Of a stretch of DNA of 16,559 nucleotides, positions 1 through 16,559 are shown piece after piece; within the stretch, counting starts at the first letter, position 1, and each line of letters begins with the position of its first letter. A program made the position numbers and the translations under genes. This stretch comes from Promethearchaeota archaeon (GTDB taxonomy: Archaea > Asgardarchaeota > Lokiarchaeia > Sigyniarchaeales > SOKP01), in NCBI GenBank assembly GCA_004524535.1, contig SDNY01000079.1, forward strand, positions 1 through 16,559, given 5' to 3'. Below the pieces are notes generated by a model that was not told the DNA's origin, made no database searches, and saw only the letters and a program-made list of their open reading frames with translations.

Positions 1-101
1 ACTTTTTTAGCTATTTGAGTATGAGTAAGACTAGGTTGGTCTTGAATTAAATTAATAATTTGCTTATCAATCTCATCTATCTTTAATACTTCGGACATCA
101 T
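1..101 (-). CDS. Lrp/AsnC-type winged-helix transcriptional regulator, N-terminal part (runs off the window start)
   Basis: Manual translation from ATG at 101 (or 98): MMSEVLKIDEIDKQIINLIQDQPSLTHTQIAKK, matching the 'lDeiDk.Il..Lq.d......eIAk' AsnC HTH start. Not in the ORF track. Confidence 0.8.
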   Translation of the reverse strand, partial: MMSEVLKIDEIDKQIINLIQDQPSLTHTQIAKK

Positions 102-144
102 TCTTTTAAATCACTTTTCATTTGATATTATTTTATATATAGAT

Positions 145-180
145 ATATCGTCATATCGGCAGATGACTATATGCCGATAT
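145..180. promoter_or_regulatory. Imperfect 36-bp palindrome, candidate transcription factor operator
   Basis: ATATCGTCATATCGGCAG/ATGACTATATGCCGATAT: the halves match 14/18 as an inverted repeat, with a perfect ATATCGGCA (153-161) / TGCCGATAT (172-180) pair. Lies about 45 bp upstream of the AsnC-type gene. Confidence 0.5.
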
Positions 181-524
181 AATAATATTAACCACTTTCA
201 TATTTAAACTTTTTTGTTCGTGATTTAATTTAAAAAAATGAATAAAGCAAGGGCATAATAATTATTTGTCTTCAAATTAATGACAATTCTTTTTGGAAGA
301 TCTTAAATGTTCTTGAGGATAAATTCAGAGGTTAAAAATCATCTGAATTATTCTTACGGAAAAATCAGAGAAAAAAAAGAATCCAAAAGACAAAAATCCA
401 GATCTCTCTCTTAAAAAATCTCACTTAATAATTATTTTAAATTAAAGTTTTTAAAGTAAGACAAATTGGCTTCTTCTGTGTCTTCTTTAACAAGAATGTG
501 TATCGGAATCAGATCTAAGTTTGA

Positions 525-794
525 CTCTTCAAGGGTTTTAATGTTAAAAAATTTCAAGACTTTCTGGAGTCACTTAAAAATTATGTGGTATCCCCTAAGG
601 CTAGTTTAGAAAATATTGGATGTCAAAATAGATTTATTATACAAAAAGATGCAGAAAAAGTCTTAGAAAATTTTATAAAATACTGGGATAGAAGTGGATT
701 TCATAGGACTCTTATTCAAGGAGATCATAAAAGAAAGTTAAAAAATCTGGCTAAATTAATAGGAATGGATTATGTTGAAGAAGATAAAGACTAA
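525..794 (+). pseudogene. Orphan C-terminal fragment resembling L-fucose/L-arabinose isomerase-like proteins
   Basis: Frame open from 525. The ending GCQNRF...FHRTLIQGDHKRKLKNLAKLIGMD resembles the 'C..........H..l..GD....l..la.llg' tail of that family. No N-terminal part or convincing start. Confidence 0.35.
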
Positions 795-822
795 TATTAT
801 GTTGAAGAAGATAAAGCTTAAT
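769..822 (+). repeat. 27-bp tandem duplication
   Basis: ATTATGTTGAAGAAGATAAAG(AC/CT)TAAT at 769-795 and 796-822, 25/27 identical, spanning the stop codon of the fragment. Confidence 0.9.
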
Positions 823-1107
823 ATCCCATCCACGCAACAAATCCACATGACTTTATAAATATAAATTAAATAAAAATATATTTTGCTTACACTTATTCCA
901 AATAAGATAAAACATCTTTCTACTATAAATTTGAATATATTATCTTTATTTTTTGCTATGTTTTTTTGGGAATTTCAAATTAATGAAGAAGTTAGATAAC
1001 TTTTGTGAACTCAAAAGACTAATAATTTATTAGTAAAATCTTTAAAAACTTTTATCCCTTTCAAAAGAACAAATAAAGATTTTTTAACGGTTTTAGGCGA
1101 TTAAAAA

Positions 1108-1443
1108 ATTTCTGAGCTAACTGAAAAAATAGCAGACTTTTTGAAAGTATTAGGAGACCAAACGCGTCTTGAAGTATTAGAATTATTAAAAAATGGAGAA
1201 AAGACTTCAAAAGAAATTGAAGATACATTGGATAAAAGTCAATCTACAATTTCCCAACATTTAAAAATACTTATTGATATGGAACTCATTGATTTTGAGA
1301 AGAAAGGAAATAAGAACTATTATAACATAAAATACGATTATGTTTTCAAAATTCTTACATTTGTACAATCGTTTGTTATTACTTTACATAAAGAGAAGTT
1401 GAAGAAAGCAGCAGATTTGGATATATATGACACTCTATTTTAA
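1108..1443 (+). CDS. ArsR/SmtB family transcriptional regulator
   Basis: FLKVLGDQTRLEVLELL...SQSTISQHLKIL...YY is the ArsR HTH signature. The ORF track starts at TTG 1141, but the frame is open from 1105. ATT at 1108 follows SD-like AGGCGAT and restores helix 1 (SELTEKIADFLKVLGD). Start uncertain. Confidence 0.88.
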   Translation: MSELTEKIADFLKVLGDQTRLEVLELLKNGEKTSKEIEDTLDKSQSTISQHLKILIDMELIDFEKKGNKNYYNIKYDYVFKILTFVQSFVITLHKEKLKKAADLDIYDTLF

Positions 1444-1471
1444 TTATTAAAAAAAACACGAGATTAAAAGA

Positions 1472-2008
1472 ATGACAAAATCTAACCCTAAAAAAATTAT
1501 ATTTATTGGGCTCGATAATGCGGGAAAAACATCGATAGTTAAATGTTTATCAGGAACAAAAAAGTTAGATAGTTTTTGTGAAATTAAACCTACAAAAGGA
1601 AATGAGATAATATCAATCAAGATATCGGATTCCGAGTTCAATATATGGGATTTAGGAGGCCAAGAATCCTTTAGAAAGGAATATTTAAGTGATTTTGATA
1701 GATATATATTTGGGTGTAATAAATTAATTTTTGTTTTTGATATTCAAGATTCAAAAAGATACGAGTTAGCTTTGCAGTATTTTGAAAAGATAATTAACTT
1801 ACTTGAAGATAATATTAAAAATAATAATATCAAAATATCTATTTTTTTACACAAATTTGACTCTGATTTAATTAAAACTGATGCTTTTAATAAGAAAATA
1901 ACTAGTTTGAAAGATAAAATTAAAGAGAAATTAGATAGTACTGATTTTTTTTATCAGATTTTCAACACAACAATTTATGCAATTTTCGAAAAGAGGGTAA
2001 CAGAGTAA
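1472..2008 (+). CDS. Small GTPase, Arf-like/Rag(Gtr)-like Asgard type
   Basis: G1 GLDNAGKTS, G2 PT, G3 WDLGGQ, G4 HKFD, G5-like TTIY; 178 aa. Confidence 0.92.
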   Translation: MTKSNPKKIIFIGLDNAGKTSIVKCLSGTKKLDSFCEIKPTKGNEIISIKISDSEFNIWDLGGQESFRKEYLSDFDRYIFGCNKLIFVFDIQDSKRYELALQYFEKIINLLEDNIKNNNIKISIFLHKFDSDLIKTDAFNKKITSLKDKIKEKLDSTDFFYQIFNTTIYAIFEKRVTE

Positions 2009-2035
2009 ACTACTACTTTTACTATATCAATGGTA

Positions 2036-2908
2036 TTATAATAAATTTAAAATTTTTTCTCTATAAACTGCTAAATCAAGCGGATTTCTTTCTTTTATTT
2101 GTTTTGAGGCTTCTTTGAGTATTTCCTTTATTTTCAAAGAATTAAAATAGCTGATTTTCGGAGCAATCACTCCTAACATATATTCTCTTTTATTTGACCT
2201 AGTAGAAGGCTCTGGATATGAATCGAACAGAATGTAACCATTTTTTTTAATATTGTCAATATGAAGTAGCATACCTTCGGCCTTTGTTATTAATTCATGC
2301 CCATAAATACTCACTGTTGCCTGAAATAATTGTTGACCAACTTGGTTGATTGAAAACGGGAAGCTTCCCTCTCTAGGAAAACAATCCCGGACCGTAGGGC
2401 CCAGGTGATCGTCCCAAAAAACCGATACCAAGATCACCTGATCTTTATCCTCTTCTGAAATAGATTGCATTTCATCCTTACTAAGTGATGACACCATTTC
2501 TTCAATTTCCTTATTTATAGAATAAATTTTTTTTTTACGAGCAAGTTTTCCAGATATTACTGCGAGTAAATCCTGTTCTTTAAAGGGTTTAGTGATATAA
2601 TCGTCTACCCCTAGCATTTTTCCAAATCGGATATCATTTGGGGAAGCCTTAGCTGTTAGAAACAAAAAAGGAATGGTTCCCCATCTTGGATCCTCAGAAA
2701 TCGTTTTAAAAAAGTCGTAACCATCCAATTCCGGCATCATAATGTCACTTAAAATGATTTCTGGATTTTTCTTTAGTGTTGAGAGAACATCAATGGCATC
2801 TTTTCCATTTTTTGCAGTAATCACTTGGTAATTATTGGATTCTAATAATAGTTTTATATTGAACAAAATATCTTCATTGTCTTCCACAACTAGTATTAGC
2901 GGGTTCAA
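2036..2908 (-). CDS. Response regulator: receiver domain plus C-terminal longin/uDENN-like domain
   Basis: Receiver motifs VVEDN, LSDIMMPELDG, FLTAK, YITKPF. The C-terminal domain begins VILVSVFWDDHLGPTVRDCFP, resembling the 'FD...GP.....P' longin/uDENN start (domain call is inference). Confidence 0.88.
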   Translation of the reverse strand: MNPLILVVEDNEDILFNIKLLLESNNYQVITAKNGKDAIDVLSTLKKNPEIILSDIMMPELDGYDFFKTISEDPRWGTIPFLFLTAKASPNDIRFGKMLGVDDYITKPFKEQDLLAVISGKLARKKKIYSINKEIEEMVSSLSKDEMQSISEEDKDQVILVSVFWDDHLGPTVRDCFPREGSFPFSINQVGQQLFQATVSIYGHELITKAEGMLLHIDNIKKNGYILFDSYPEPSTRSNKREYMLGVIAPKISYFNSLKIKEILKEASKQIKERNPLDLAVYREKILNLL

Positions 2909-2965
2909 ATTTAAGTCACTCTTTTTTAATATTAAATATTTTTGCCGATAATTATTTTATTTTTT

Positions 2966-4909
2966 TCATCCTTTATTTTTATTACTATGAAAAAATACTG
3001 AAAAAGTAGAGCCTTTTCCGTACTCACTCTCAACAAATATTTTTCCATCATGAAATTGTGTTAGCTCCTTTGCAATAGCTAACCCCAGCCCCGTACCACT
3101 AATGTCCCTCACATCTTCTGACCTAAAAAACCGTTCAAATAATTTTGGTATTTCTTCCTTACGAATACCTCTTCCATAATCTTTGAATTGAAACAGAAGT
3201 CCCATAAATTCTTTAGAATCAGTAATATATTTGTAGTTTTCTATTGCTTTAATCTCAATCTTTGTATTCTCATGAGAATATTTTATCGCATTATCAATTA
3301 ATATCCGAAAGATCTCCTCAATAATACTTGAATCCCCAAATAATTGAATCCCTTTATGCACTTCAACTTCAATATTTATATTTTTCTCTTTTAGACGAGG
3401 TTCCATCAGATCTATAATTTCATGAATGACTTCCAATGGATAGAAATCTTTCCATTCAATTTTTAATTTTTCTTCATCAATTTTTGAAAGTGTGAGAATA
3501 TCCTCAACCAATTCATTAAGTGCTGTGATATTTCTAGAAAGTCCTTCTAATAATTTTTCCTCTACCTCTGGTGTGAGCTTCTGCTTTTGATTTTTTAAAT
3601 ATTCTATTGACATAATCAACACCGTTATAGGCGTCCGCAATTCATGGGAAACAGTTGAAACAAACTCCTCTAATTTTTGTTCTGCCTTTTTACGTTCAGT
3701 GATATCTCTCCCTACAACAACAATATATTTAAGATTACCTTCTTCATCATTTATATTTGTTCCAATATATTCAAAAGGGATCGATTTTCCATCTTTAGTG
3801 ATTAGGTTCATTTCAACTAAAGTTTTTCCTTCTTTTTTTACATCTTCAATTGCTACTGCTGCTTTTTTTAAATCTTCTTCGTTATAATATGAAATTGGTG
3901 CTGGCATTGAAGAAATTTCTTCATCACTATAACCGCTGACTTCTCTGAATGCTTTATTCCATATTAAAGCCTTTCCAGTAGATGGATCAAATATGAAGAA
4001 GGAGTCTCTCTGTGAGTTTAATGCAGTTTCGGTGAATCTTTTTTCTTCCCGTAGCGAAATTTCACTACGCTTTAATTTTCTAAATAAAAGATTAAAAGGA
4101 TTTTCTAGTCCAATTTCGATAATTGCTCTGTATAAGAGAAAGAATGCGACAATCTTAAAAAGGTGTCCGATTAAATTAGAGAGATCATAAGTGCTTACAT
4201 AAAAAGTGAAGGCCAACTCGGCAATCATTGTTGAAATGATTGAACCCACGATAAAAATAAATATTTTTTTGTTAAATTCTTTCCGAACTTTATACATTAT
4301 AAATACAGTCAAAAAAAGAATGGAAATGATTATATACTCACTGATAATCTTAAAGGGTGTCAATCCTGAACCTTCAATATAACAGTTAGGAAAAAGCCTA
4401 TTGAAAATTAGGAATATCAATAGAGAAGTAATAATTGTATATATAAGAATTAAATCATTTGTATTTACTTTTTTATTAACAACTAAAGCTGCATATAAAA
4501 AAGAAAAGGCTTGAAGATATCTCGCAGCAATCCACAGCTGTGTAGGAAGATTTGAACCGTATCCTGTAAATATTCCCATTCCAGTATAAGCTAGTGTGTG
4601 GAGTAAATCCATAAAGCCAATAAAAATAAATGATATGCCAACAACCAAAAAGAAAGAATTATCTATATTTTTTCGGCTATTCCATGCGATTACAAATATT
4701 CCGCCAGCAATAATAATACTAAATAGTTCAGCTATAGTATGGAAAAGAAGATAACTATAAAGAGAGGTTAAAGCTGTAGCTAATAAGATTAAAGAAAGAA
4801 TACCAAGCTCTATATAATCTTTTCTTATTCTAGATTGAACTCCTATGCTGTTGTTATTTACAATTTTATCTTCACTAACAAATTCAGAATTATCTCGTAG
4901 ATTTAACAT
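2966..4909 (-). CDS. Membrane sensor histidine kinase (MASE3-PAS-HisKA-HATPase)
   Basis: MASE3-type motifs FHTIAELFS, DLLHTLAY.GM, TQLWIAAR; PAS/PAC ending GRDITERK; H-box SHELRTP; N-box NAIKYS; G-boxes DYGRGI, GTGLGL. Confidence 0.93.
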   Translation of the reverse strand: MLNLRDNSEFVSEDKIVNNNSIGVQSRIRKDYIELGILSLILLATALTSLYSYLLFHTIAELFSIIIAGGIFVIAWNSRKNIDNSFFLVVGISFIFIGFMDLLHTLAYTGMGIFTGYGSNLPTQLWIAARYLQAFSFLYAALVVNKKVNTNDLILIYTIITSLLIFLIFNRLFPNCYIEGSGLTPFKIISEYIIISILFLTVFIMYKVRKEFNKKIFIFIVGSIISTMIAELAFTFYVSTYDLSNLIGHLFKIVAFFLLYRAIIEIGLENPFNLLFRKLKRSEISLREEKRFTETALNSQRDSFFIFDPSTGKALIWNKAFREVSGYSDEEISSMPAPISYYNEEDLKKAAVAIEDVKKEGKTLVEMNLITKDGKSIPFEYIGTNINDEEGNLKYIVVVGRDITERKKAEQKLEEFVSTVSHELRTPITVLIMSIEYLKNQKQKLTPEVEEKLLEGLSRNITALNELVEDILTLSKIDEEKLKIEWKDFYPLEVIHEIIDLMEPRLKEKNINIEVEVHKGIQLFGDSSIIEEIFRILIDNAIKYSHENTKIEIKAIENYKYITDSKEFMGLLFQFKDYGRGIRKEEIPKLFERFFRSEDVRDISGTGLGLAIAKELTQFHDGKIFVESEYGKGSTFSVFFHSNKNKG

Positions 4910-5092
4910 TAAATCTCGTTTTAGAACTTATTAAAATATAAATTGATAAGGATTTTATTTCTGTTTTTTTATTTTTTTGTTAAATATATTCAATATTAAA
5001 AAAAAATCCTAAATCTTTATAGTTAATTATCTAGTTTTTTCCAAGATATTAATATTAACTTAATATAAAATATACTTCAACTTAAAATACTC

Positions 5093-5106
5093 AAAAAAAA
5101 AAAAAA
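5093..5106 (-). terminator. U-tract, archaeal-type intrinsic terminator candidate
   Basis: 14 consecutive T on the minus strand, about 15 nt after the stop codon of 5121..5528. Confidence 0.45.
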
Positions 5107-5120
5107 GTAATATAAATTGA

Positions 5121-5528
5121 TTAAAACACCCACAGGGTGAATCCGATAAGGAGCCCAATAGCTAAGATTATAAGAATTATTATTATAACTGCCGCAATCA
5201 CCGCTATAATTGTTACAAAGATCGCAGTGCCAAATCCAATTTCATGACGTTTTGCGATTATTATCCAACATATAATTAAACCAATTATTATTGCAACAAT
5301 CAACCAAATAAATGCGTTTGAAAACCAATTAAACAGAACAATCAATAACCACATGACTATCGTACAGATAAGAGCTGTGGCGAATACGCTACCGAATTCC
5401 GTCTTCTCTGAATCAACGAAAGCTAAACCAATTTTAAGAAATATCGTTAAGAAAATTAAAAAGAAGACGAAAATTAGGATATATATTATAATAAGCCATA
5501 TCAGAGTTCCTGTTACTTGTAATATCAT
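5121..5528 (-). CDS. Hypothetical integral membrane protein (about 4 TM helices)
   Basis: 135 aa with four long hydrophobic segments and an internal repeat (EFGSVFATALI / GFGTAIFVTII). Confidence 0.75.
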   Translation of the reverse strand: MILQVTGTLIWLIIIYILIFVFFLIFLTIFLKIGLAFVDSEKTEFGSVFATALICTIVMWLLIVLFNWFSNAFIWLIVAIIIGLIICWIIIAKRHEIGFGTAIFVTIIAVIAAVIIIILIILAIGLLIGFTLWVF

Positions 5529-5820
5529 TTTTACTAATCCCTATCAAAAATTAATTTATTCTTTATTTTTATTAAAATTAGAATTGTAATACTTTATTCT
5601 TAAGTATTTATAAATCTATTCTCTATAATATATTGGTTTTTATAGAGAACTCCTACAAATTGGTCAATTTTAAAACATTTATAAGTTCTTATTAATCTGA
5701 AATTTTTGAGCATCAATCAATGATTTTTGTCGACGTAATGATTTAATAGAAATATATTATGCATTTTGTTTTACTTTCATTTTCCTCTCTCTATCTCCAA
5801 GAAAAAAGCTTTATCTTATT

Positions 5821-6786
5821 TTATATAAGAAATTTGCCCTCTTTTTGAATTAATTTTCCGTCAATTTCTATGGTGGTCTTATCCATAACTCCATCGTGAT
5901 GGATATTACTATATGTGTTCCCACCTATGTTTATATTCTTCCCGATAGCCAAGTGAGAAGTAGACTTCAAACATTTATCTCCTACAGTTCCAGTTGTATG
6001 CTTAACGGTGTGATTAGTCCCTATTCCCAACTCTGCAATGTTATTTCCATTCTCATCTGCTGCTTCGATAATCGCTCGTATCTTATCCGCTTCTTCAGCC
6101 CCTTCAATTTTCACTGCTCGTCCATTTTCAATTAATATATTTACGGGAGTTTTAATAGCACCAACTTTTTCGAAAAACACATCTATTATCCATATGCCTT
6201 GAGCAGTCCCCTCAACAGGAGCTATCGCCGCTTCTGAGTATTCAGGCACGGCCCCCCATGCTCCGGGAACAACATGTCTAACACTTAACGGAGCAGAAAT
6301 CCTATCCTTTATAGATAATACAACATCAGTACCTAAGTGAGTAGAAATTCTCGCTTCTTCCCCATTTGTTAATATTTCTGATAATTTTTCCGTTAATTCA
6401 GTAATTTCATACACATCTTCGCTCGTAATATTAGGGTTAATGTAAGGGACACCTCCTACTCTTGCCCCTGCATCTGTAGCTGCTCGCCTTGCATTCATAT
6501 GAAGAAATAGTTGTATCGTACTATAGGGTAGAACCCCTAAAATTACATTTGATTTAAGCATTTTCTGACTTACTTCTTCAGGGGGTTCTATTAGCATCTC
6601 TTTATTTGCATCTACATTAACTGTAGTTACTTCTGCACCTAAAGCCTCTGCTTCTTCAGCTAAAAGAACTGCATTTTTTTTAAAACCTCTTGAGGTGATA
6701 ATTAATACCTTTTCATTCGGTTTTATTCCCATGCATGTTTCCACAATAACCCGTGCTCCTTTTCTGTAATCTAATTTCTTACTCAT
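5821..6786 (-). CDS. Aminopeptidase T-like (peptidase M29-related) metallo-hydrolase
   Basis: IKPNEKVLIIT at the N-terminus; P..EAAIAPVEGTAQG, NIAELGIGTN, HLAIGKN...GG...SNIHHD; SD GGAGGT upstream. Confidence 0.85.
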   Translation of the reverse strand: MSKKLDYRKGARVIVETCMGIKPNEKVLIITSRGFKKNAVLLAEEAEALGAEVTTVNVDANKEMLIEPPEEVSQKMLKSNVILGVLPYSTIQLFLHMNARRAATDAGARVGGVPYINPNITSEDVYEITELTEKLSEILTNGEEARISTHLGTDVVLSIKDRISAPLSVRHVVPGAWGAVPEYSEAAIAPVEGTAQGIWIIDVFFEKVGAIKTPVNILIENGRAVKIEGAEEADKIRAIIEAADENGNNIAELGIGTNHTVKHTTGTVGDKCLKSTSHLAIGKNINIGGNTYSNIHHDGVMDKTTIEIDGKLIQKEGKFLI

Positions 6787-6950
6787 TTTGCATGTACCTC
6801 CTTTGTTAAAAAATTTATTTTGATAACATTAAATCTTAATTAGTTCAAATTTTATGAGAAATAATAATTTTTATATAGATTTTATAAGGGGATATTTTTT
6901 CAAATTAGAACTAAACCTTATATCGCGTTCTAAAATAGCGTAAAGTTATT

Positions 6951-9230
6951 TTATATCGCTTTTGGAATTAAAACACTAAAATTAGAACCCTTCGTATAAT
7001 CCCCTTTTACTTTATTTTCGATCCAGATTTTTCCATTATAAATATCTATTAATTGTTTAACAAGCGATAATCCTATTCCCAATCCCCTTACCTTACCATT
7101 TCTTTTAGTTACTCTCTGGAATAATATATCTTTTCTTTCGTCTGGGATCCCAATTCCATTGTCTATGAATTCAAATTTTAAGTAATTTATATGATTTTTT
7201 TGCTCTTCAGAAATTTTAACTAGAATTTCAATTTCAGGATTTATGTTATGCTTTACGCCATTGATTAATATATTTTCAAAGAGATCCAATATGAGATCAT
7301 TTGCTTTAACAAAATATTTTTTACTTTGAGTATCAACTTCGATTTTAACTTTTCTACCTTGAAAACTCTTGTAGACAAATTTAATTGCATCCTCTAAAAT
7401 ACTGATAACTTCAATAGGTTCTGTCAATATTTCAGTTTCTTCAAGTTCAGATAATTTTATAATATTTGAAACAATGGATGCTCCTCTAAACACTTGTTTT
7501 GTAATTAAATTTAATAAATTTCTCCTATCTTTAAGATATTCGGGTTTATTTTGAAACATTGCATATAATTCTACAGATGATTGGATTGTTTGAAGTAAGT
7601 TATTCATATCATGAGCAATTAATTCTTTATAAAAGTTAGCCCGATCGTAAGCATTGCGATATTTATCTTCTGATTCTCGGAGATCCCTCTCGATTTTTTT
7701 TCTCTTAGTTATATCTCTCCCTACGGATACGATTAGAGGATCACCGTCTACACTTTTAAAAGTTCTTGCTGTATATTCAAATGGAATGCTACGACCATCT
7801 TTAGTAATAAGCGACATTTCAACAGTCGTTTTTTCCTCACTTAATACTTTTTCTATAGCTTTTGCTGCACATTTTAAATCTTCTTCACTATAATAAGAAT
7901 CAGGAGCTTTCAATGATGCAATCTCATCATCAGTATAACCAGTAATATCGCTAAAAGCTTTATTCCACTTTATGGCTCTCCCTGTTTGGGGTTCAAATAC
8001 GAAAATCGTATCAATTGAGGTATTTAATACATTATCAGTAAACTCTTTTATAGCTTTTAAAGCCTCATATGCGTTCTTTCTTTGTGTTATATCCTGAGCA
8101 ATAGCTATAACAAATATATTATCATCTTTCTTGATTATCGAACTTTGATAATTTATCCATGCTAAACTTCCATCCTTTTTTTTTATTTGGATTTCTATAG
8201 GCTTTAATTTTTTTCCTTCAAGAACATCCTTATATCTCTTTTTAAATAAGGAGATTTGTTCATTAGTGTAAATTCCAAGTTCCCTATATTTTTTGCCAAT
8301 AACTTCATCTCTATTATAACCATAAATTTTTTCAGTAGCAGGATTAACATCTAATATTGTCCCTTTTCTATTAACTAAAGTAATGGAATTAGGCGATTCC
8401 TCATATAAATGTCGGTATTTAGTTTCAGATTCTTTAAGTGCTTTTTCTATTTTTTTTCTATTAGAAATATCCCTAGAGACTCCCAATATTCCAATTGCGT
8501 TTCCATTTTCATTACGCATAAAGGTAATTGTCATCTCCACATCGATAATAGACCCATTTTTATGTATCTGCTCTGTTTCAAAGGTGCGAGAACGTATTAA
8601 ATCTTTATCTTTCTTTCTTTCCAATCTCATTTCTTCTTTAAAGATATTAACAATTTTTTTTAGGGAAGATGGGGCTACAGTCTTATTAATTGGTAGATTT
8701 TTGGCTTCCTTTATAGTATATCCGAGTATTTTTGGACATGAAGGGCTTATATATGTCAATTTTAAATTCATATCAGTTGTCCAAACAACATCATCTGCGT
8801 TTTCCGTAATTAATCGATATCTCTCTTCACTTTTTTTTAATTTTTGGTCAGCACGTTTTTGCTCAGTAATGTCTATGACAATTGCTCTTAAGCCTATAGG
8901 TTTATTTTCACGAATAATGAGACCTGTATAGACAAGAATAGGGAATGTAGTTCCATCTTTTCTCAAACCAGTATATTCGACACCATTTAACTTTTCTCTG
9001 TTTAATATTCTTAATATATTTTTCATCGCTCTATCATGATCTTCAGCAACAAGCACATCAAATACCTTCATACCTCTATTCAAATCTTCGGGGGTATAAC
9101 CAAATTTTTCGAACCCGATTTTATTAACATATGTGAATATGCCTTTATTATCAAGTTCGCAAATAATTTGAGGTAATAAATTAAGAATTTCGTCAAAATT
9201 ATTATCTTTTTCTTGTGTTTTTACTCCCAA
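6951..9230 (-). CDS. Cytoplasmic multi-PAS (4x) sensor histidine kinase
   Basis: Four PAS/PAC repeats ending DITEQK, DISNRK, DITQRK, DITKRK; H-box AHDMNN; N-box NGVKHN; DNGIGI and GLGIGL. Confidence 0.93.
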   Translation of the reverse strand: MGVKTQEKDNNFDEILNLLPQIICELDNKGIFTYVNKIGFEKFGYTPEDLNRGMKVFDVLVAEDHDRAMKNILRILNREKLNGVEYTGLRKDGTTFPILVYTGLIIRENKPIGLRAIVIDITEQKRADQKLKKSEERYRLITENADDVVWTTDMNLKLTYISPSCPKILGYTIKEAKNLPINKTVAPSSLKKIVNIFKEEMRLERKKDKDLIRSRTFETEQIHKNGSIIDVEMTITFMRNENGNAIGILGVSRDISNRKKIEKALKESETKYRHLYEESPNSITLVNRKGTILDVNPATEKIYGYNRDEVIGKKYRELGIYTNEQISLFKKRYKDVLEGKKLKPIEIQIKKKDGSLAWINYQSSIIKKDDNIFVIAIAQDITQRKNAYEALKAIKEFTDNVLNTSIDTIFVFEPQTGRAIKWNKAFSDITGYTDDEIASLKAPDSYYSEEDLKCAAKAIEKVLSEEKTTVEMSLITKDGRSIPFEYTARTFKSVDGDPLIVSVGRDITKRKKIERDLRESEDKYRNAYDRANFYKELIAHDMNNLLQTIQSSVELYAMFQNKPEYLKDRRNLLNLITKQVFRGASIVSNIIKLSELEETEILTEPIEVISILEDAIKFVYKSFQGRKVKIEVDTQSKKYFVKANDLILDLFENILINGVKHNINPEIEILVKISEEQKNHINYLKFEFIDNGIGIPDERKDILFQRVTKRNGKVRGLGIGLSLVKQLIDIYNGKIWIENKVKGDYTKGSNFSVLIPKAI

Positions 9231-9422
9231 TATATAGCACCTAATTTTCTTTGTATATTTATTAGATTATTAAATAAGAAATATTTAAAATTATCCTCAT
9301 GAAATTATAAGATTTCTATGGAAAAATGGAATTAGTTTTTAAAATAATTAGATAGAAAAATTTAAGGAAATTAAAAGAAGATATTTTTCCAGAGACAAGA
9401 ATTAATTAATATTTAGGGATCA

Positions 9423-10190
9423 TTAATGTAGAACGACTCCGCCACATATACTTATACATTGTCCGGTCATATAATTTGAATCGTCTGAAACTAAGTAAGA
9501 AATGATTCCGTTAATATCCTCAGCCGTTCCCACTCTTTCTAAGAGAGGACTCATGTTTATCGATTTCCACATGGATTGACATAAATTAGGATCATTTTTA
9601 TATATTGGTGTAATATGATAACCAGGGCATATTGCGTTCGCAGTTATTACAGGTGCTAATTCTTTTGCGAATGATTTTGTAAGTGAATTTATTGCCGCTT
9701 TGCTACAACTATAGATCCCTAAACTAGGCATTGGTTCTAATCCAGCAAAGGAAGAAACGTTGATAATTTTTCCCCTAAGAGGCGTTAATTTTCTTTGTTT
9801 TTTCATTGCTAATGCAGAATATTTCGATACTAACCAGGTTCCTTTAAAATTTATATCCATTATTTCTTGTGCCTCTGCTTCAGCCATTCTAAGAATTGAG
9901 CGGGGTTTCCCACTAATTCCTGCATTATTGATAACAGCATGAAGCAATTCTGCGTCGTTAATTATTTCCGAAATCATAGACTCTACAAATTTAGAATCTG
10001 AGACATCTCCAGTCTTAATATAAGTCTTCACATTATATTCTTTTAATAGTTCCTGCGTTTCAATCAATTTACTTTCAGTTCTTCCGTTTAAAATGATATT
10101 ATGCCCTTCAGACGCTAATCTTATAGCCATTGCTCTGCCAAGACCAGAGCCAGAACCAGTAATTAAAATATTTTTTGAGTTCAATTTCAA
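9423..10190 (-). CDS. Short-chain dehydrogenase/reductase (FabG-like)
   Basis: TGSGSGLG, NNAG, YSCSK catalytic motif, NAICPG, YMTGQ. Confidence 0.93.
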   Translation of the reverse strand: MKLNSKNILITGSGSGLGRAMAIRLASEGHNIILNGRTESKLIETQELLKEYNVKTYIKTGDVSDSKFVESMISEIINDAELLHAVINNAGISGKPRSILRMAEAEAQEIMDINFKGTWLVSKYSALAMKKQRKLTPLRGKIINVSSFAGLEPMPSLGIYSCSKAAINSLTKSFAKELAPVITANAICPGYHITPIYKNDPNLCQSMWKSINMSPLLERVGTAEDINGIISYLVSDDSNYMTGQCISICGGVVLH

Positions 10191-10260
10191 TTCACCCTTA
10201 TTTTACTATGTTGGATATATACCTTGTGATAATTTTTTTCTCATATTTCATTCTCAATCT

Positions 10261-11046
10261 TCAAAGTTTATAAAGTTCTTGTCTTCGATCTTTAAATAAA
10301 TTATTAAATTCATTTAGAGATTTATTGCGAGCTGCTTTAATATCAATATCAATGATGTCAACAAAAACTTCACTAACAGGAGCAGACGATAAAACCTCAC
10401 CATCAAATGCGGTTATCTGACTAGCTCCAGTAAATATAAACTTATCTTTACCCCTTTCTTCTGTTCCAATACGATTTGCAGTAATTGCAAAAACATGGTT
10501 TTCAAGACAGCGAGTTTTCATTGCATTCTGGCAATATGGAAGAACCAGATTTGCAGAATGTGCAATAATATCTGCACCAAGGAGAGCAAGCGACCTTGCT
10601 GATTCGGGAAAAATCCAATCAAAACATATCATTATTCCAATTTTAACATTATTAACTTCATATATCATAAATTGTTTATTTCCTGGAGAAAACCACATTT
10701 TTTCCTTATTATATAGATGAATTTTTCTATATGTGCCAATTATCTTTTCTTTAAAAATCATCATTGAAGAATTATAGATTTTAGATCCTTCTTTTTCAAC
10801 AAATCCGCCAACAATAATAGCCCCTGTTTTCTGAGAGATCTGCTGTAGAAAAATTGATGTGTCTCCATTTATTTTTTCAGCCAAATTAAGTGCTTCTTCC
10901 TTTGAAATAAAAGTATAACCCGTTGCAAAAAGTTCAGGAAGAACTATTAAATCCGCTTGAATATTATCTATTAACTTTTCGATTTGAGCAAAATTTTTTT
11001 CTTTTTCTCCAAAAAGTGGAGAATTTTGTACATATCCAACTTTCAT
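10261..11046 (-). CDS. Nitrilase-related carbon-nitrogen hydrolase
   Basis: Glu-Lys-Cys triad motifs LPELF, YRKIHL, ICFDW; ANRIG.E. Confidence 0.93.
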   Translation of the reverse strand: MKVGYVQNSPLFGEKEKNFAQIEKLIDNIQADLIVLPELFATGYTFISKEEALNLAEKINGDTSIFLQQISQKTGAIIVGGFVEKEGSKIYNSSMMIFKEKIIGTYRKIHLYNKEKMWFSPGNKQFMIYEVNNVKIGIMICFDWIFPESARSLALLGADIIAHSANLVLPYCQNAMKTRCLENHVFAITANRIGTEERGKDKFIFTGASQITAFDGEVLSSAPVSEVFVDIIDIDIKAARNKSLNEFNNLFKDRRQELYKL

Positions 11047-11229
11047 TTTATTATTTTATTTAAATAAGATAAATTAAAAAAAATCTACTGAAAATCGTAA
11101 TAATAATTAACGAAATTCATCTAATTATTAGAATAATTATTGTCATAAAGCATTTTAAAAACGATTAAATAAAAAGCTATAAGTGAATAAAAATAAAATA
11201 AGAAAAAAAATACTTTGAGAATTAATAAT

Positions 11230-11607
11230 TTAAATTTCTGCTATAGCATCTATTTCAATCAACATTCCTGCTGCGGGTAAATTTGCTATTTCAACTGTTG
11301 TTCTGGCTGGAAATCTCTCATTAACTCCATTATTTTCGAAAAATGTTCTATATATTCTATTCATCTTACCAAAATCTTTAATATTTTTCAAGAAAACAGA
11401 CACTTTTACTATTTTCGAGACTTTTGATCCTGCTACTTCCAGAATTTTTTTAACATTCTCAAGTGCACTTAAAGTTTGTTCTTTTATATCTGTTGTTCCG
11501 GCTGCAGGGCCTTGACCTGAGACAAAAATCAAGTTTCCAACTTTAACACCAGGAGTATAAGGTCCAGCGACAGGAGTTCCGGGATTAAAATATTCAATAT
11601 TTGCCAT
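11230..11607 (-). CDS. ridA: RidA/YjgF family enamine/imine deaminase
   Basis: GPYTPG, FVSGQ, MN.IY..FF, PARTTV (catalytic Arg), IEIDAIA. Confidence 0.9.
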   Translation of the reverse strand: MANIEYFNPGTPVAGPYTPGVKVGNLIFVSGQGPAAGTTDIKEQTLSALENVKKILEVAGSKVSKIVKVSVFLKNIKDFGKMNRIYRTFFENNGVNERFPARTTVEIANLPAAGMLIEIDAIAEI

Positions 11608-11629
11608 ATTCTATATTATGCCTTAAATA

Positions 11630-12709
11630 CTAATAATTTTTTCCCCTTGCTAATATATCCCATTTTGCGATAATTTTACCATCTTTCACAACAGTAAAAA
11701 AATCATATAAATTTACTGTAGTACAAATATGGGATGGATATAATTCAAGCTTTTGTCCAATTTCAAATTTATCTTTAGGACTTGCTCTAAAAATAGAGTG
11801 CTCTTCTGTCATTACTCTAATTTTGCATTTAGGATAATTCTTGAAAATAGGATTACCATTATCATTAGTAGCTGCTTTTAATCCAGCATCAATGGTATAA
11901 TATCTATTTCCAGGAATATTTGTAACTGTACCTAAAACCGTCACAGCTATATTAAATTCTGGAGATACTCTATAGTAATGTTCATCATTGAAGATATAAG
12001 TGCCTGTTTGGAGTTCAGTGATTCCATCATATTTCGCTGAAAATTTATAGGTAACAGTATTACTTGCAGTTAAATAGTCCATATTGAATCCATTATTATT
12101 AAGAATATTTCTTGTATTTACTAATCGCTTCATGCATTCATTTGTTTGTTTTTCCCTTAATTCAGGATCAAGTACTGAAGTTAAATGTCCCTCATACCCC
12201 TGCAATCCTACTAATTTCAAATTAGGCTGTTTTTTGATAAAATTAGCAAGATGAAGTGCGGGTTCTCCGGGTTTTACACCATTTCTTCCCAATCCCACAT
12301 CTACTTCAATTAAAACCTCTAGCTTAACATCTTTTTTAGAAGCAGCTTGATTTAGGTCTAAAATATTTTTTTCAGAATCAACACATACTCTAATTAACGA
12401 TTTTTTATTTAATTCAACCAAGCGTTTAATTTGACTTAGATCAATGACCTGATTAGCAATTAAAATATCGTTGAATCCATTTTGAGCAAAAATTTCAGCT
12501 TCCCCAACTCTTGCTACACAAATACCATTAGCTCCAGCTTCAAGCTGTTTTTTACCAATTATAGGACATTTATGGGTTTTTACGTGAGGTCTTAAACTGA
12601 CATTATTCTCTTTCGCAAATTTAGCCATTGTTTCGATATTTTTCTGCATTAGATCATAATGTAATACCAAAGCAGGTGTAGATATCTCATCCTTCCAATT
12701 TTTCCCCAA
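11630..12709 (-). CDS. Fold-type III PLP enzyme, DSD1/D-threonine aldolase family
   Basis: TPALVL, RPHVKTHK (PLP lysine), EVDVGLGRNG, GYEGH, DAGLKA, EEH, PSHICTTVN. Confidence 0.9.
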   Translation of the reverse strand: MGKNWKDEISTPALVLHYDLMQKNIETMAKFAKENNVSLRPHVKTHKCPIIGKKQLEAGANGICVARVGEAEIFAQNGFNDILIANQVIDLSQIKRLVELNKKSLIRVCVDSEKNILDLNQAASKKDVKLEVLIEVDVGLGRNGVKPGEPALHLANFIKKQPNLKLVGLQGYEGHLTSVLDPELREKQTNECMKRLVNTRNILNNNGFNMDYLTASNTVTYKFSAKYDGITELQTGTYIFNDEHYYRVSPEFNIAVTVLGTVTNIPGNRYYTIDAGLKAATNDNGNPIFKNYPKCKIRVMTEEHSIFRASPKDKFEIGQKLELYPSHICTTVNLYDFFTVVKDGKIIAKWDILARGKNY

Positions 12710-12755
12710 GGTTGATAACTCCTTTTATTTTTTCTAAGAAATTAAAATAAAGAAA

Positions 12756-14573
12756 TTATTTAATATAAGCTCCAAATTGCGGGAATTTTTTCAACTGTTC
12801 AGAATTAAATATTGGTCCCTCTTTACAAACAGAGATGTCATTATTTTCTCCAACACAACATGAACCGCATAAACCAACACCACATTTCATCTTTCGTTCG
12901 AGAGAAGCTTGAACTATGATATTTTTAGATTCAGCAATGTCAAGCACTTTTTTCATCATTATTTCTGGACCACAAGTTATTATTAGATCAATTTTTTCTT
13001 TTTCTATAATTTCCTCAATTTCATCAGTAACAAAACATTTTTTTCCAACCGAACCATCATCAGTGGTACAGAACGTGTTAGGGATGAGTTCTATTAATCT
13101 TTCAGAGAAAATTAATGAAGATTCATCCTTTGCTCCAATTGCAACAAATACATTTTTTTTATTTCTCTTTAAAGGTTCAATTAACGATGTAAGGGCTGCA
13201 ATACCCATACCACCACCAACTATAAGGATATTTTGAGCATCTTCGTAGTTCCATGAATTTCCAAAAGGTCCTCTTATTCCGATATTATCTCCTTCTTTTA
13301 GCTCAAATAATTTAGCAGTGCCCTCGCCAATTTTTTGAACAGTAATTTCAATTAAATTTCCGGCAACTTTAGAAATTGACATAGGTAAGAAATCAATATC
13401 TGGAAGCCATAAAATAACAAATTCTCCAGGACGATAAGCTTGTGCTATTCTTGAACTTCTAATAACAAAACTTTTTATCTCGGGAGAGTGTTCCACGATG
13501 GCTTCTATTTTTGCAATCTCAGTTTTATTTCTTGTTATGTCTAAAATTAGTTCTTCATTATCTTTATCAAGATTTTTTACTTCAAGAATTCCTTTATTTA
13601 CAGATAAATCGAAAACTTCTTGTCCTCTTGGTGTTCTAATTATTATAGTTCTCCAGCCCTCTTCGCTACCGACATTTCCTACAGAGATATCTGCAAATGA
13701 GGCAGTATAATCAGAACACGAAAAACAAGCATGCCTGACTGAATTATCATATAAATAATTTAGAGGAATCTTTTTCTCTCCAGATTCTGTTTTAATTTTC
13801 ATTTTAAAATCGTTTTTAATTGAATTAATAGATTTAATTTCCCTCGAATTTATATCATATTCCTTGAAACATTTTGCTAATTGTTGATTATAAAAGGTAC
13901 CAAAACAAAATGTTCCAATTGCTAATGAAATCAAATCATATGCCTCAAAATCGAAGCCTGGGTGATTTTGTAATTTTCTTAAACCTTGAATTTGACATGG
14001 AGTTCCTACAATTGCTATGTCAGTAAATTCTTTGTTAATAGCATCTCCCACTAAAGAAAGTGAAGGACTTTGGCTAGGTTTATATCCTATACCTTTGAAT
14101 AAATCATTTTGGTTTTCAGCAATCATCGAAAAAGGTCTAAAATTTTCGTCTTTATCAGTTATTATTGAGGCATCAATTAAACCAGCTTCCATTGCTATAT
14201 TTAATAGAACAGTTAAGGGTCCAGCGTGTATCGGAATTTTAGCTGCTGCTTCATCAGTGAGCTTTACTGAAACAATTTTTATATAATGCCCCAAAATTTT
14301 ATCATGTTCTTTACCAAATACCCATTTATCCAAAAGATTTAATGGTATTTGATCTGTTCCGGTTTTTGGACAGACATTATAACATAAACCAAAGCCATCT
14401 CGACAAGTGTTAATATCTTTACATGATCCATCTTCTATAGGAATTTCTTTCTCAGGGTCAAATTTAATATTTGCACAAAACGCTCCACATGCCCCACAGT
14501 AGACGCATTTACCAGTTTTGATGATTTCAGAATCGAGCTCTTGCCATCCTTTTTTTACTTTTTCAATCTGCAT
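12756..14573 (-). CDS. Fusion of FrhB/FdhB-like F420-binding beta subunit and PyrK-like FAD/NAD/[2Fe-2S] electron transfer subunit
   Basis: N-part: CVYCGACGAFC, C..CP, VGTPCQI, GTFCFG, CFSCSD....ADISVG. C-part: RGPFGN, VGGGMGIA, TDDGS.G, CGPE.MM, SLERKMKCGVGLCGSC...CKEGP. ATG at 14573, 1 nt after the upstream stop, is preferred over the ORF-track start at 14594. Confidence 0.9.
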   Translation of the reverse strand: MQIEKVKKGWQELDSEIIKTGKCVYCGACGAFCANIKFDPEKEIPIEDGSCKDINTCRDGFGLCYNVCPKTGTDQIPLNLLDKWVFGKEHDKILGHYIKIVSVKLTDEAAAKIPIHAGPLTVLLNIAMEAGLIDASIITDKDENFRPFSMIAENQNDLFKGIGYKPSQSPSLSLVGDAINKEFTDIAIVGTPCQIQGLRKLQNHPGFDFEAYDLISLAIGTFCFGTFYNQQLAKCFKEYDINSREIKSINSIKNDFKMKIKTESGEKKIPLNYLYDNSVRHACFSCSDYTASFADISVGNVGSEEGWRTIIIRTPRGQEVFDLSVNKGILEVKNLDKDNEELILDITRNKTEIAKIEAIVEHSPEIKSFVIRSSRIAQAYRPGEFVILWLPDIDFLPMSISKVAGNLIEITVQKIGEGTAKLFELKEGDNIGIRGPFGNSWNYEDAQNILIVGGGMGIAALTSLIEPLKRNKKNVFVAIGAKDESSLIFSERLIELIPNTFCTTDDGSVGKKCFVTDEIEEIIEKEKIDLIITCGPEIMMKKVLDIAESKNIIVQASLERKMKCGVGLCGSCCVGENNDISVCKEGPIFNSEQLKKFPQFGAYIK

Positions 14574-14574
14574 C

Positions 14575-15231
14575 TTACTTTTTTTCACCCTCAAGTTCTT
14601 TTAAAAAATATTCTGCTTCGACTTTTCCAAGTTCAAACGCTTCTAAATTTTTTTCTAAAGTGGCTTTTGGTACAAAATTTTTGATAGTCTCAATTGCCGC
14701 TTCCTCGGAGAAAATTTTTGAAAGAGCTGTAAACGCTCCAAATAGAATTGAATTCCCATACACTGTATCTTCAAATTTTTCTAATGCCATTCGCTGAACT
14801 GGTATGCGTAAAGATTTAAATTTTTTTGCTAGCCTGAATTTATTAATTGTGGAAGGATCCCATATTAAATAGCCGGTATTATCTCCTTCTTTCAAAGAAT
14901 CTCGTTTGATATCTTTAGCAGATTCCTCAGAAAGAACAATTAAAAAATCATAAGGCATTAAAGCTTTAGGATAATCTATTTGTTTTGTGTCTCTATCCAA
15001 ATCAACCACAACTTCAGCCCAACACCTTCCACCTTTTGCTAAATCATTCGTTTATAATGATTTTCTAGCAGCGGCACTGTAAGCTTCCGTTTGAGTCGCA
15101 GCTAAATTTTCATATATCGCACTTGCCATTGTTATCATTTTGCTGAGGGTAATAACGCATACCACTTCTAACTGAAGTAATTAGAAGACTTGGCCCCCAT
15201 ATCCAGCGATTCTAATTTCGTATCTTCTCAT
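14575..15231 (-). CDS. 2-oxoacid:ferredoxin oxidoreductase gamma subunit (KorC/PorG family), split into 3 predicted exons: 15231-15189, 15158-15065, 15034-14575
   Basis: Joined exons total 597 nt and give 198 aa: MRRYEIRIAGYGGQGVITLSKMI...TQTEAYSAAARGGRCWAEVVV...N.ILFGA...NLEAFELG. The ORF track only captured the third exon. Confidence 0.92.
15035..15064 (-). other. Predicted 30-nt BHB intron 2 in the gamma-subunit gene
   Basis: TGCT AG^A AAATCATT ATAAACG AATGATTT AGCA AA^A GG: 4-bp helix TGCT/AGCA, two 3-nt bulges, 8-bp inner stem, in-frame TAA at 15054-15052. Confidence 0.88.
15159..15188 (-). other. Predicted 30-nt BHB intron 1 in the gamma-subunit gene
   Basis: GCCA AG^T CTTCTAATT ACTTC AGTTAGAAG TGGT AT^G CG: 4-bp helix GCCA/TGGT, two 3-nt bulges, 9-bp inner stem, in-frame TAA at 15183-15181. 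Confidence 0.88.
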
Positions 15232-15367
15232 TTTTAATCAAAACATATTTAATCTTAATATTTATTATAATATGATAATCTTCAAAAATTTTTAAATTAA
15301 TTAATTCTTGCTAAATCTAAAATAATGAATTATTAACAAGAAAAAGGAAAAAAAATATAAAATATAA

Positions 15368-15544
15368 TTATATTAAGCCGAATTGCCTTAAAGGGTTCTT
15401 CCAACCACAAGAACATTCTTCCGCGTCGGGTTCTATTAGGTTAAAACATTTGGGGCAAGTAATTGTTCCTTCATAGTATGCTTCTTCTATAAAAGGCTGT
15501 AAGTCTTTCACTTTTGCTTTAGTCTTGGATTCCATTTGCTTCAT
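15368..15544 (-). CDS. Small zinc-ribbon protein (58 aa)
   Basis: MKQMESKTKAKVKDLQPFIEEAYYEGTITCPKCFNLIEPDAEECSCGWKNPLRQFGLI; CxxC...CxCG; SD-like GGAGAGTGA upstream. Below the ORF-track length cut-off. Confidence 0.75.
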   Translation of the reverse strand: MKQMESKTKAKVKDLQPFIEEAYYEGTITCPKCFNLIEPDAEECSCGWKNPLRQFGLI

Positions 15545-15694
15545 TCACTCTCCTTTTTTCATTGAATTTAATAAACCATTTGTGAAATAAGTCAAAAATC
15601 TCTCGGCTTTAAATTCCATTGATATTAACTCTTGTTTAATTGTTTTTTGCTGAGGAAGGTCTAAATTTTTATATATATCAATTATTACTTCCAT
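15545..15694 (-). CDS. Short hypothetical ORF (49 aa), possibly the 3' part of a frameshifted gene
   Basis: MEVIIDIYKNLDLPQQKTIKQELISMEFKAERFLTYFTNGLLNSMKKGE; its TGA directly abuts the next ATG; the frame is open upstream to 15814. Confidence 0.35.
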   Translation of the reverse strand: MEVIIDIYKNLDLPQQKTIKQELISMEFKAERFLTYFTNGLLNSMKKGE

Positions 15695-16137
15695 TGTAAT
15701 AAGTTGATTATCGCTTTGTAAAATTAAGATTAAAATCTTTTCTGAGAAATGCTCTGAATTCTCTGAATTGGAAGAGTCAGAGTGAGAATAAATGAAAAAT
15801 CGAACAGAAATGTATCAAATTTTCTTTTCTTCGAAAAAATTTTTTTAAAGTAATATCTTTGCCTATTGTGTATCTTATAATACGAAATTTTTGCCTTTAA
15901 AAAGTATGTGAGAAAATTAATTAAATCTATGTTTAAACTTCCTTAAGATTATTGAAATTTCTAATTTTTTTTAATTTAATTCTGAATTTTTTCATTAGTC
16001 TTTAAATTAAATATCTCTCTAAATATCTAAAAGAGGAAAATTAATGAGATACAAAAATCCTTAAGGGAGATTAAATTTAAATTTCTGAATTCTGATATTA
16101 TCATAGAATAATTAAAAATATTTTTTTTTTTTTAAAA

Positions 16138-16410
16138 ATGGAAGAATTTAAAGTTAATGAGTATATTACGCTGAAATTAGAGGATGGAATAACCAATATC
16201 TATATAAAGGGAGATGACTATCCATATTTGCAATGTAAATATCTCTTAATGAGAAAAACTATCAATGAAATAAAAAATCTTACTGAAAATATAAAATCTA
16301 TCGATGAATTTGCTGAACATTTAGATCATTCATTAGATCCTTCATTAGAAACAGACGAACCTGATTTGATCGATATCCCTCATGAAACCGAATTCTGGGC
16401 ACATTGCTCT
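16138..16410 (+). CDS. 5' exon of a Lokiarchaeia multicopy-family protein (N-terminal domain often preceding leucine-rich repeats)
   Basis: 91 codons: MEEFKVNEYITLKLEDGITNIYIKG...QCKYLL...IKSIDEFAEHLD...ETEFWAHCS. From recall, the family continues NLQxW; here similarity stops at 16410. Confidence 0.75.
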
Positions 16411-16559
16411 GTGCGACATGAAAGCTGTATGGTTGAATGCGGAAACTTGAGAAATAACAATATGGTAAGTCTATCTTTGAATAGACACTCAAGAAGCCGA
16501 CCTCGAGATGGACGAGTGTGGCTACCCAAGCATGCGCCATTAGTAATGATGGTGTATGA
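16411..16559 (+). mobile_element. 5' end (domain I) of a probable group II intron, truncated by the window end
   Basis: Starts with the GUGYG consensus (GTGCGACATGAAAG) exactly where protein similarity breaks. GC content visibly rises. Stems GTCTAT/ATAGAC, AGCC..CTCG/CGAG..GGCT, and a 12-bp G-U-rich stem capped by a GNRA loop (GTAA) at 16531-16558. Confidence 0.78.

Follow-up and report, generated by a model that had tools for sequence, protein, structure and literature searches.

Does a 30-nt insert that carries an in-frame stop inside a conserved protein motif mark a broken archaeal gene, or an intron that is removed from the messenger RNA? The question is raised by a POR-gamma-family gene of a Promethearchaeota archaeon (GenBank assembly GCA_004524535.1), located on the minus strand of contig SDNY01000079.1. 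Positions 1 to 16,559 of this contig (16,559 nt) were analyzed and are referred to as the window; coordinates given without a contig name refer to it. The genome consists of 3.66 Mb in 198 contigs, is rated 99% complete and has a G+C content of 29.8%. The POR-gamma-family gene is single-copy in this near-complete genome.

The interrupted gene and its genomic setting

The gene begins with an ATG at 15231 and is read on the minus strand as three exons separated by two inserts, the putative introns 1 and 2. Exon 1 (15189..15231) is 43 nt long, i.e., 14 codons plus one nucleotide, and its 3' end (15189) is the first base of the last Gly codon in the GxGGQG motif. Intron 1 (15159..15188, 30 nt) lies inside G|GC in phase 1. 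It is followed by exon 2 (15065..15158, 94 nt), intron 2 (15035..15064, 30 nt, phase 2, in an AG|A Arg codon) and exon 3 (14575..15034, 460 nt including the stop). The N-terminal GxGGQG of the protein is encoded across exons 1 and 2. Exon 3 alone matches positions 47-171 of the 173-position Pfam POR profile (PF01558), scoring 55 bits where the cut-off is 27.4 (E = 1.5e-14), and the large frame that carries this match spans 14575-15009 (-). An in-frame TAA is found two codons into intron 1, where the unspliced frame stops. Excision of introns 1 and 2 gives a stop-free frame of 597 nt (198 codons), the same length as in L025 and L077, the two nearest uninterrupted orthologues. The exons contain no further stops or frameshifts.

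The downstream gene (12756..14594, minus strand) overlaps the 3' end of the POR-gamma-family gene by 20 nt. It encodes a 612-aa fusion of FrhB/FdhB-like and PyrK-like (DHODB Fe-S, NAD-binding) domains and is a probable operon partner. Upstream of the POR-gamma-family gene, about 900 nt of AT-rich DNA (15232-16137) contain only two small frames, one of 58 aa (zinc-ribbon-like, CxxC...CxC) and one of 49 aa; in the nearest relatives (L077-L079) a different gene ends a few bases before the POR-gamma start codon. The window also encodes a RagA/Arf-type GTPase. No tRNA was found in the window by ARAGORN and no Rfam family reached its gathering score there.

Predicted intron 1: borders and fold

The initial annotation, made from the sequence without database searches, had placed a 30-nt insert at 15159-15188 (-), in phase 1 inside G|GC, and its sequence, coordinates and phase were all reproduced here. 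It had also stated that the borders do not slide and are set independently by protein conservation. Both points were borne out. The border bases are G|T and T|G, and since they differ, no alternative 30-nt deletion gives Q-G-V; a single 30-nt deletion restores it. In a DNA alignment with three same-genus orthologues the insert appears as a clean 30-column gap. This alignment shows two such gaps (15159-15188 and about 15035-15064) and no other indel.

BHB motifs were searched for with a scanner of canonical geometry (5' helix strand, 3-nt bulge and inner stem, then inner stem, 3' helix strand and 3-nt bulge), which places the cuts after the second base of each bulge. The cuts that it predicts, 15188/15189 and 15158/15159, are the borders of the insert, as the initial annotation had claimed. 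The central helix of 4 bp is formed by the exonic 5' strand GCCA (15191..15194) and the intronic 3' strand UGGU (15161-15164). The 5' bulge AG^U occupies 15188..15190, with the predicted cut between 15189 and 15188, and the 3' bulge AU^G occupies 15158..15160, with the predicted cut between 15159 and 15158. The intron hairpin (15165-15187) has a 9-bp stem and a 5-nt loop, ACUUC (15174-15178). Intron 1 has, in short, a 4-bp helix and two 3-nt bulges on opposite strands, and its excision yields a frame collinear with the orthologues; the two lines of evidence, protein-conserved borders and BHB cut sites, agree. Folding of minus-strand 15205-15145, which had been proposed as a check, gave an MFE structure with GCCA/UGGU, the 3-nt AGU bulge, the 9-bp inner stem and the 5-nt loop.

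An outer exon-exon stem, AUGGGG/CGUUAU, had also been given weight. It does pair at five of six positions (G-C, a G.G mismatch, G-U, G-U, U-A and A-U), but its addition changes the energy from -11.1 to -10.4 kcal/mol. With this cost of +0.7 kcal/mol and a pair probability of 0.02 it is no real helix. With a negligible outer helix h, the motif of intron 1 is probably not a strict hBHBh'; the inner helix h' has 9 bp. The motif fits a relaxed BHB form, in which the core and the inner helix are good and the outer helix is almost absent.

The BHB core has an energy of -11.1 kcal/mol compared with -12.4 for the local MFE, and its pair probabilities within a 110-nt context are 0.34-0.45. The 61-nt fold is no more stable than shuffled sequences (z = -0.52; 56 of 200 shuffles fold equally well). 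Genome-wide, the combination of length 30, a 4/4 central helix and at least nine inner pairs was found at 69 sites in 2 x 3,664,620 positions. From 69 sites in 7.3 million positions, the chance that a BHB of this shape falls on the borders of a given insertion is about 1e-5.

Predicted intron 2 and putative intron sites in the orthologues

Introns 1 and 2 share one build, made of one bulge base, a 23-nt hairpin, four helix bases and two bulge bases. Intron 2 has a UGCU/AGCA helix, bulges AG^A and AA^A, an 8-bp inner stem and a 7-nt loop, and in this register the scanner cuts coincide with its borders too. Its MFE fold favours another, shifted register, in which one bulge has 4 nt and 28 nt would be cut out; it is the UGCU/AGCA register that restores the frame and is kept in L080. 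This metagenome locus encodes a 71% identical protein and carries a 30-nt insert exactly at the intron 2 site. Relative to intron 2, compensatory changes on both sides affect two pairs of L080, one in the central helix (U-A to A-U) and one in the inner stem (C-G to U-A); a third pair has changed on one side (U-A to U-G), and none is disrupted.

No insert was found at the exact intron 1 site in the 19 relatives' loci with a visible N-terminus, all of them uninterrupted (L024 and the contig-end fragment L020 are left out of this count), nor in 12 species-collection loci, whose genomes partly overlap the 19. The same was true of 14 metagenome contigs, 13 of which are uninterrupted (L091, without the N-terminus, is left out), and of the 79 other genomes in an order-wide screen. 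In this screen a POR-gamma gene was detected in 80 of 153 genomes; the orthologues other than the one studied here comprise 72 open frames of at least 197 aa, three cut by contig ends and four interrupted. Judged from these sequences, intron 1 at its exact site is apparently confined to this genome. The initial annotation had named, as evidence against splicing, orthologues that encode a 10-aa insertion at this place. None of the 72 full-length open frames encodes extra residues at the intron 1 site.

Inserts at neighbouring sites were found in other genera. In G104 and G105, which belong to a different genus, 29 nt are inserted 1 nt upstream of the intron 1 site, where they separate the Gln codon from the Gly codon. 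This insert has a canonical BHB in both (GGUC/GAUC and GGUC/GAUU, bulges AA^A and AA^G), and the two copies differ by a G-C to A-U exchange in the lowest pair of the inner stem. G104 has a second 29-nt insert with a canonical BHB, after a Ser codon four codons upstream of the intron 2 site. After the same Ser codon, about 200 nt into the POR-gamma gene, G134 (L095) and G136 (L096) carry a 31-nt insert. Splicing at the sole canonical BHB found in it would remove 27 nt but not eliminate a stop; G134 and G136 either use a relaxed motif or have broken copies of the gene. Across genera of the family, at least four intron sites fall within 100 nt of the POR-gamma gene.

Similar inserts elsewhere in the genome

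A search for BHB hits that join two interrupted open frames (30-32 nt, 7-9-bp stems) was carried out on the whole genome. At least eight further inserts of 30-32 nt were identified in seven other genes. They interrupt the argininosuccinate synthase gene argG inside its SGGxDT motif (C8 15418-15447), cdhD (C8 3057-3086), cdhA (C100 12004-12033), the RNA polymerase A' gene rpoA1 after GHFGH (C17 309-338), a DeoC-type aldolase gene (C16 3517-3548), the Elp3-like gene elp3 (C98 11116-11146) and a gene for a 241-aa protein (C101 21656-21685). All but one have a canonical BHB. The exception is an extra 31-nt insert in rpoA1 (C17:449-479, minus strand) after D-E-D-G codons, which lacks a canonical BHB at its protein-defined borders; a 7-bp hairpin is present, and the insert was not found in any of 23 aligned relatives.

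For most of these inserts, the split frames correspond to parts of a single protein, to judge from Pfam profile coordinates or orthologue frames that run on across the insert. The exons of rpoA1, scanned separately, match adjoining positions of the Rpb1_1 profile (34-73 and 74-153), those of cdhD match CdhD profile positions 7-135 and 138-227, and the ArgG profile match resumes at position 12 after the argG insert. The cdhA frame is 786-819 aa long in relatives compared with 82 aa here, and the C101 gene encodes 241-255 aa in relatives compared with 59 aa here. The cdhA frames of G010:C46 and G007:C220 stop after 89 aa, and these two probably share the cdhA intron. RNA polymerase A' domain 1 is encoded at a single locus of the genome, with a TAG inside. 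The interruption of this essential single-locus gene in a near-complete genome argues strongly against gene decay.

The rpoA1 intron (C17 309-338) was compared among relatives. Of 23 relatives, 18 have an empty site and five an occupied one; the insert has 30 nt in three of these five, and lengths of 40 and 50 nt are found in the remaining two. In the four 30-nt copies, including that of this genome, 96.2% of cells pair, against 36-50% when the partners are slid by one to three columns, and eight of 13 pairs change on both sides. The covariation score was matched by none of 500 shuffles, which with four related sequences is indicative and not a probability. Homologous introns that covary are this rpoA1 intron, intron 2 (with L080) and the neighbouring-site inserts of G104 and G105.

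Genome-wide controls were run with mirror-image decoys. At loose thresholds there was no excess of frame-fusing BHB sites over decoys (1616 vs 1582), and the numbers remained level after a best-coding-frame filter (820 vs 819) and similar after a codon-usage filter. The genome contains 47,791 loose BHB hits, as many as mirror decoys. Only the class with L = 30 and a 9-bp stem exceeds its decoys (8 vs 2), and GC-containing stems of 29-35 nt show a weak excess. This AT-rich genome is full of hairpins, and intergenic ones between co-directional genes pass the frame-fusion filter. Since BHB sites show no genome-wide excess, the case stands on the individually validated genes.

The hairpin loops of the validated introns were compared by eye. 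Nine of 12 are 5 nt long and end in UC (ACUUC, AGAUC, GCAUC, AAUUC, AGUUC and, four times, AUUUC); some of these are homologous copies and are not independent. The stems share no common sequence, and UC-ending loops are not enriched among all BHB-like hits.

Splicing enzymes and tRNA genes

The genome encodes two EndA paralogues, in ORFs L001 1168-1773 and L002 1219-1824, detected as PF01974 loci with 107.9 and 70.7 bits, both above the Pfam cut-off. One ORF is alpha-like and keeps the Tyr, His and Lys that we take to be the catalytic triad; its closest PDB entries are 3p1z_B (E = 7.6e-37) and 3ajv chain B (1.9e-35). The other ORF is beta-like and does not have that His. RtcB is also encoded (561 bits), and its gene (C101:22508-23815) lies directly 3' of the gene for the 241-aa protein. 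The EndA pair and RtcB supply the splicing endonuclease and the RNA ligase that a BHB intron requires of its host.

The accessible part of one study (PMC5829648) attributes an (alpha-beta)2 EndA to Asgard archaea, links an L1 loop insert to broad specificity and assigns relaxed BHB forms to (alpha-beta)2 and epsilon2 enzymes. Two EndA paralogues are given for 44 of 60 Asgard genomes in the available portion of a preprint (bioRxiv 10.64898/2026.10.13.758758). In this genome, ARAGORN reported only 22 tRNA genes and called introns in 13 of these; heavy interruption probably keeps many tRNA genes from being detected. Two 29-nt hits of the BHB scan lie inside ARAGORN tRNA genes and show the same compact hairpin build.

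Local sequence history and assembly support

The first 60 nt of the spliced coding sequence are 70% identical to the nearest orthologues. In 30-nt bins, the rest of the coding sequence is 77-100% identical, mostly 28-30 of 30, and the bin around intron 2 stands at 77%. Beside intron 2, an AGT Ser codon and an AGA Arg codon match the distant L080 and not the close intron-less relatives. Beside intron 1, three synonymous differences create or improve pairing (GGC, and GC GTT ATT vs GT/GA GTA ATA). The changes in the flanks fit either adaptation of the exons to the motif or acquisition of the introns with short flanks.

No contig that bridges 15140-15213 at a likeness of at least 85% was found in four DNA runs, including the probable source run, which gave only fragments of this region. 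A contig of another sample (X2) matches the window at 99% identity over 14665-15142, beyond which nearly all synonymous sites differ. Upstream of exon 2, 30 letters of X2 are visible and are not the expected GGN CAA; these 30 letters would fit an intron that ends 1 nt upstream of intron 1. Given the diverged first 60 nt and the divergence of X2 at 15142, the 5' end of the POR-gamma gene may be mosaic or chimeric. Among loose contig ends there are relatives without intron 2, and one contig may carry an intron 2 variant.

Splicing model and alternative explanations

We consider it likely that the insert at 15159-15188 (-) is a BHB intron of the POR-gamma-family pre-mRNA that is spliced by EndA and RtcB; cleavage and ligation of this RNA are what we infer from sequence and predicted structure. 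After transcription, exonic GCCA would pair with intronic UGGU, and the 9-bp intron hairpin would stack on this helix, so that AG^U and AU^G would bulge out, 3 nt each, from opposite strands. A two-subunit EndA made of the alpha-like and beta-like proteins would then cut after the second base of each bulge, and RtcB would join the exons and restore the GGC Gly codon. Removal of intron 2 (15035-15064) in the same way would give the 198-codon frame collinear with the uninterrupted orthologues. Most likely, intron 1 serves no function itself; it appears to be a tolerated recent gain, belonging to a class that this archaeal family is acquiring again and again.

The POR-gamma gene could instead be a pseudogene, inactivated by two unrelated hairpin insertions (e.g., footprints of mobile elements) whose BHB shape is fortuitous. 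The restriction of intron 1 to this genome is what such an event would leave, the gene shows unusual divergence at its 5' end, and BHB-like hairpins are common in this AT-rich genome, where loose hits stay at the level of the mirror decoys. Yet the cut sites of both inserts restore the frame to the base, an agreement of about 1e-5 each at a fixed position, and the exons are free of other lesions. An insert of the same build splits single-locus rpoA1 as well as cdhA, cdhD and argG in a 99%-complete genome, and the homologous introns covary; gene inactivation is thus an unlikely explanation. We regard as very unlikely an artefact of assembly or binning, in which a strain mis-join in the metagenome assembly would have supplied the 30 nt or even all of the gene's 5' end. 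It would account for the mosaic pattern of divergence, for X2, which is nearly identical up to 15142 and divergent upstream of it, and for the missing bridging contig even in the probable source run. However, a mis-join would not be expected to make a perfect BHB with cuts that restore a conserved motif, independent assemblies contain intron 2 and the other introns of the class (L080, G104, G105, G134, G136, G021, G006 and G010), and even a strain chimera would leave a real intron-bearing allele.

There is next to no probability, in our view, that the insert stays in the mRNA and that the ribosome copes with it by bypassing, read-through of the stop or a tolerated 10-aa insertion. In favour of such a reading, the insert length is divisible by three and the interruption is followed by a stable hairpin. 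This recalls the bypassing of phage T4 gene 60, in which the untranslated gap also has matching take-off and landing codons on its two sides. In the POR-gamma gene, by contrast, the insert lies in phase 1 within a codon, so that there are no matching take-off and landing codons; its TAA is reached after two codons, it sits within GxGGQG, and no orthologue encodes extra residues here. Sister inserts of 29, 31 and 32 nt would moreover shift the frame. Size, phase and the in-frame stop led us to reject an intein, translational bypass and read-through. Group I and group II introns were also rejected, as the insert has 30 nt compared with a catalytic core of hundreds of bases, and no Rfam match was obtained.

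Relation to known systems and biological meaning

Mechanistically, the predicted intron would fall into a known category, that of EndA-type BHB introns of pre-mRNAs; what appears to be new is the lineage, the gene and the occurrence of a whole class in one genome and family. A BHB intron in cbf5 pre-mRNA of Crenarchaeota was reportedly described by Watanabe and colleagues in 2002. The crenarchaeal cbf5 intron is also the subject of Yokobori et al., 2009 (PMC2738675), and the accessible part of a later paper (PMC7714728) names cbf5 as the only other BHB mRNA intron reported as of 2020, besides its own 5'-UTR case. As far as the available text of these sources goes, the POR-gamma introns resemble cbf5 in being short, bounded by a BHB and located in the coding frame, in having a hetero-oligomeric endonuclease and in their lineage-specific gain or loss. 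They differ from cbf5 in phylum (Promethearchaeota) and gene, in the presence of two introns in one gene and of at least eight interrupted genes in one genome, and in their uniform build, with a 9-bp stem and a 5-nt loop in about 30 nt; splicing is predicted here from sequence. The 5'-UTR case is the HVO_1309 mRNA of Haloferax volcanii, whose BHB intron is, according to the accessible part of the same paper (PMC7714728), a substrate of the tRNA-splicing endonuclease confirmed in vitro. An mRNA is the putative substrate of this endonuclease in both systems, but on the available text the Haloferax intron lies in the UTR and not in the coding frame, in a euryarchaeal host with a different EndA type.

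In the portion of the preprint that is available, which deals with tRNA genes only, those of Asgard archaea are described as heavily interrupted, with repeated independent intron gains (bioRxiv 10.64898/2026.10.13.758758). The predicted introns share the motif, and presumably the enzymes, with archaeal tRNA introns, but the host RNA is an mRNA. An mRNA has no tRNA stem to supply the outer helix, and this helix is almost absent here. In eukaryotes, a small intron of HAC1/XBP1 mRNA is removed under stress regulation by a protein endonuclease that acts on stem-loops and by an RtcB-type ligase, independently of the spliceosome. This IRE1/RtcB splicing is covered in the accessible part of PMC13149111. 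The splicing proposed here likewise relies on a protein endonuclease and an RtcB-type ligase with no spliceosome; it differs in its endonuclease and its motif, and stress regulation belongs to the eukaryotic case. A literature search for BHB introns in Asgard protein genes returned work on tRNA and rRNA only; supplements and most subscription journals lay outside this search, and earlier reports are possible.

With somewhat less confidence than we place in the splicing of intron 1, we suggest that this family of Promethearchaeota probably harbors actively spreading BHB mini-introns of about 30 nt in protein genes (essential rpoA1, cdhA, cdhD, argG and POR-gamma), sometimes two per gene and with repeated gains at hot spots. 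The mini-introns may move at the DNA level together with short tracts of flanking exon, since the exons beside both introns are locally diverged and the flank of intron 2 resembles a distant intron-bearing allele. Recurrent gains of this sort would provide material on how introns enter coding genes.

In the accessible parts of the sources, the known BHB introns in archaeal coding frames rest on cbf5, to which the Haloferax 5'-UTR case is added (PMC2738675, PMC7714728). In the Asgard genome studied here, at least eight genes seem to depend on this mechanism, at sites that are common to several genera or were gained again in them. Gene prediction, completeness estimates and pseudogene calls for Asgard archaea would need an intron-aware step; if the reading is true, gene callers systematically mis-annotate such genes as split genes or pseudogenes. 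The introns would offer a concrete, testable system of spliceosome-free mRNA splicing in the lineage nearest to eukaryotes. It would follow that the closest prokaryotic relatives of eukaryotes routinely need the tRNA-splicing machinery for the expression of protein genes.
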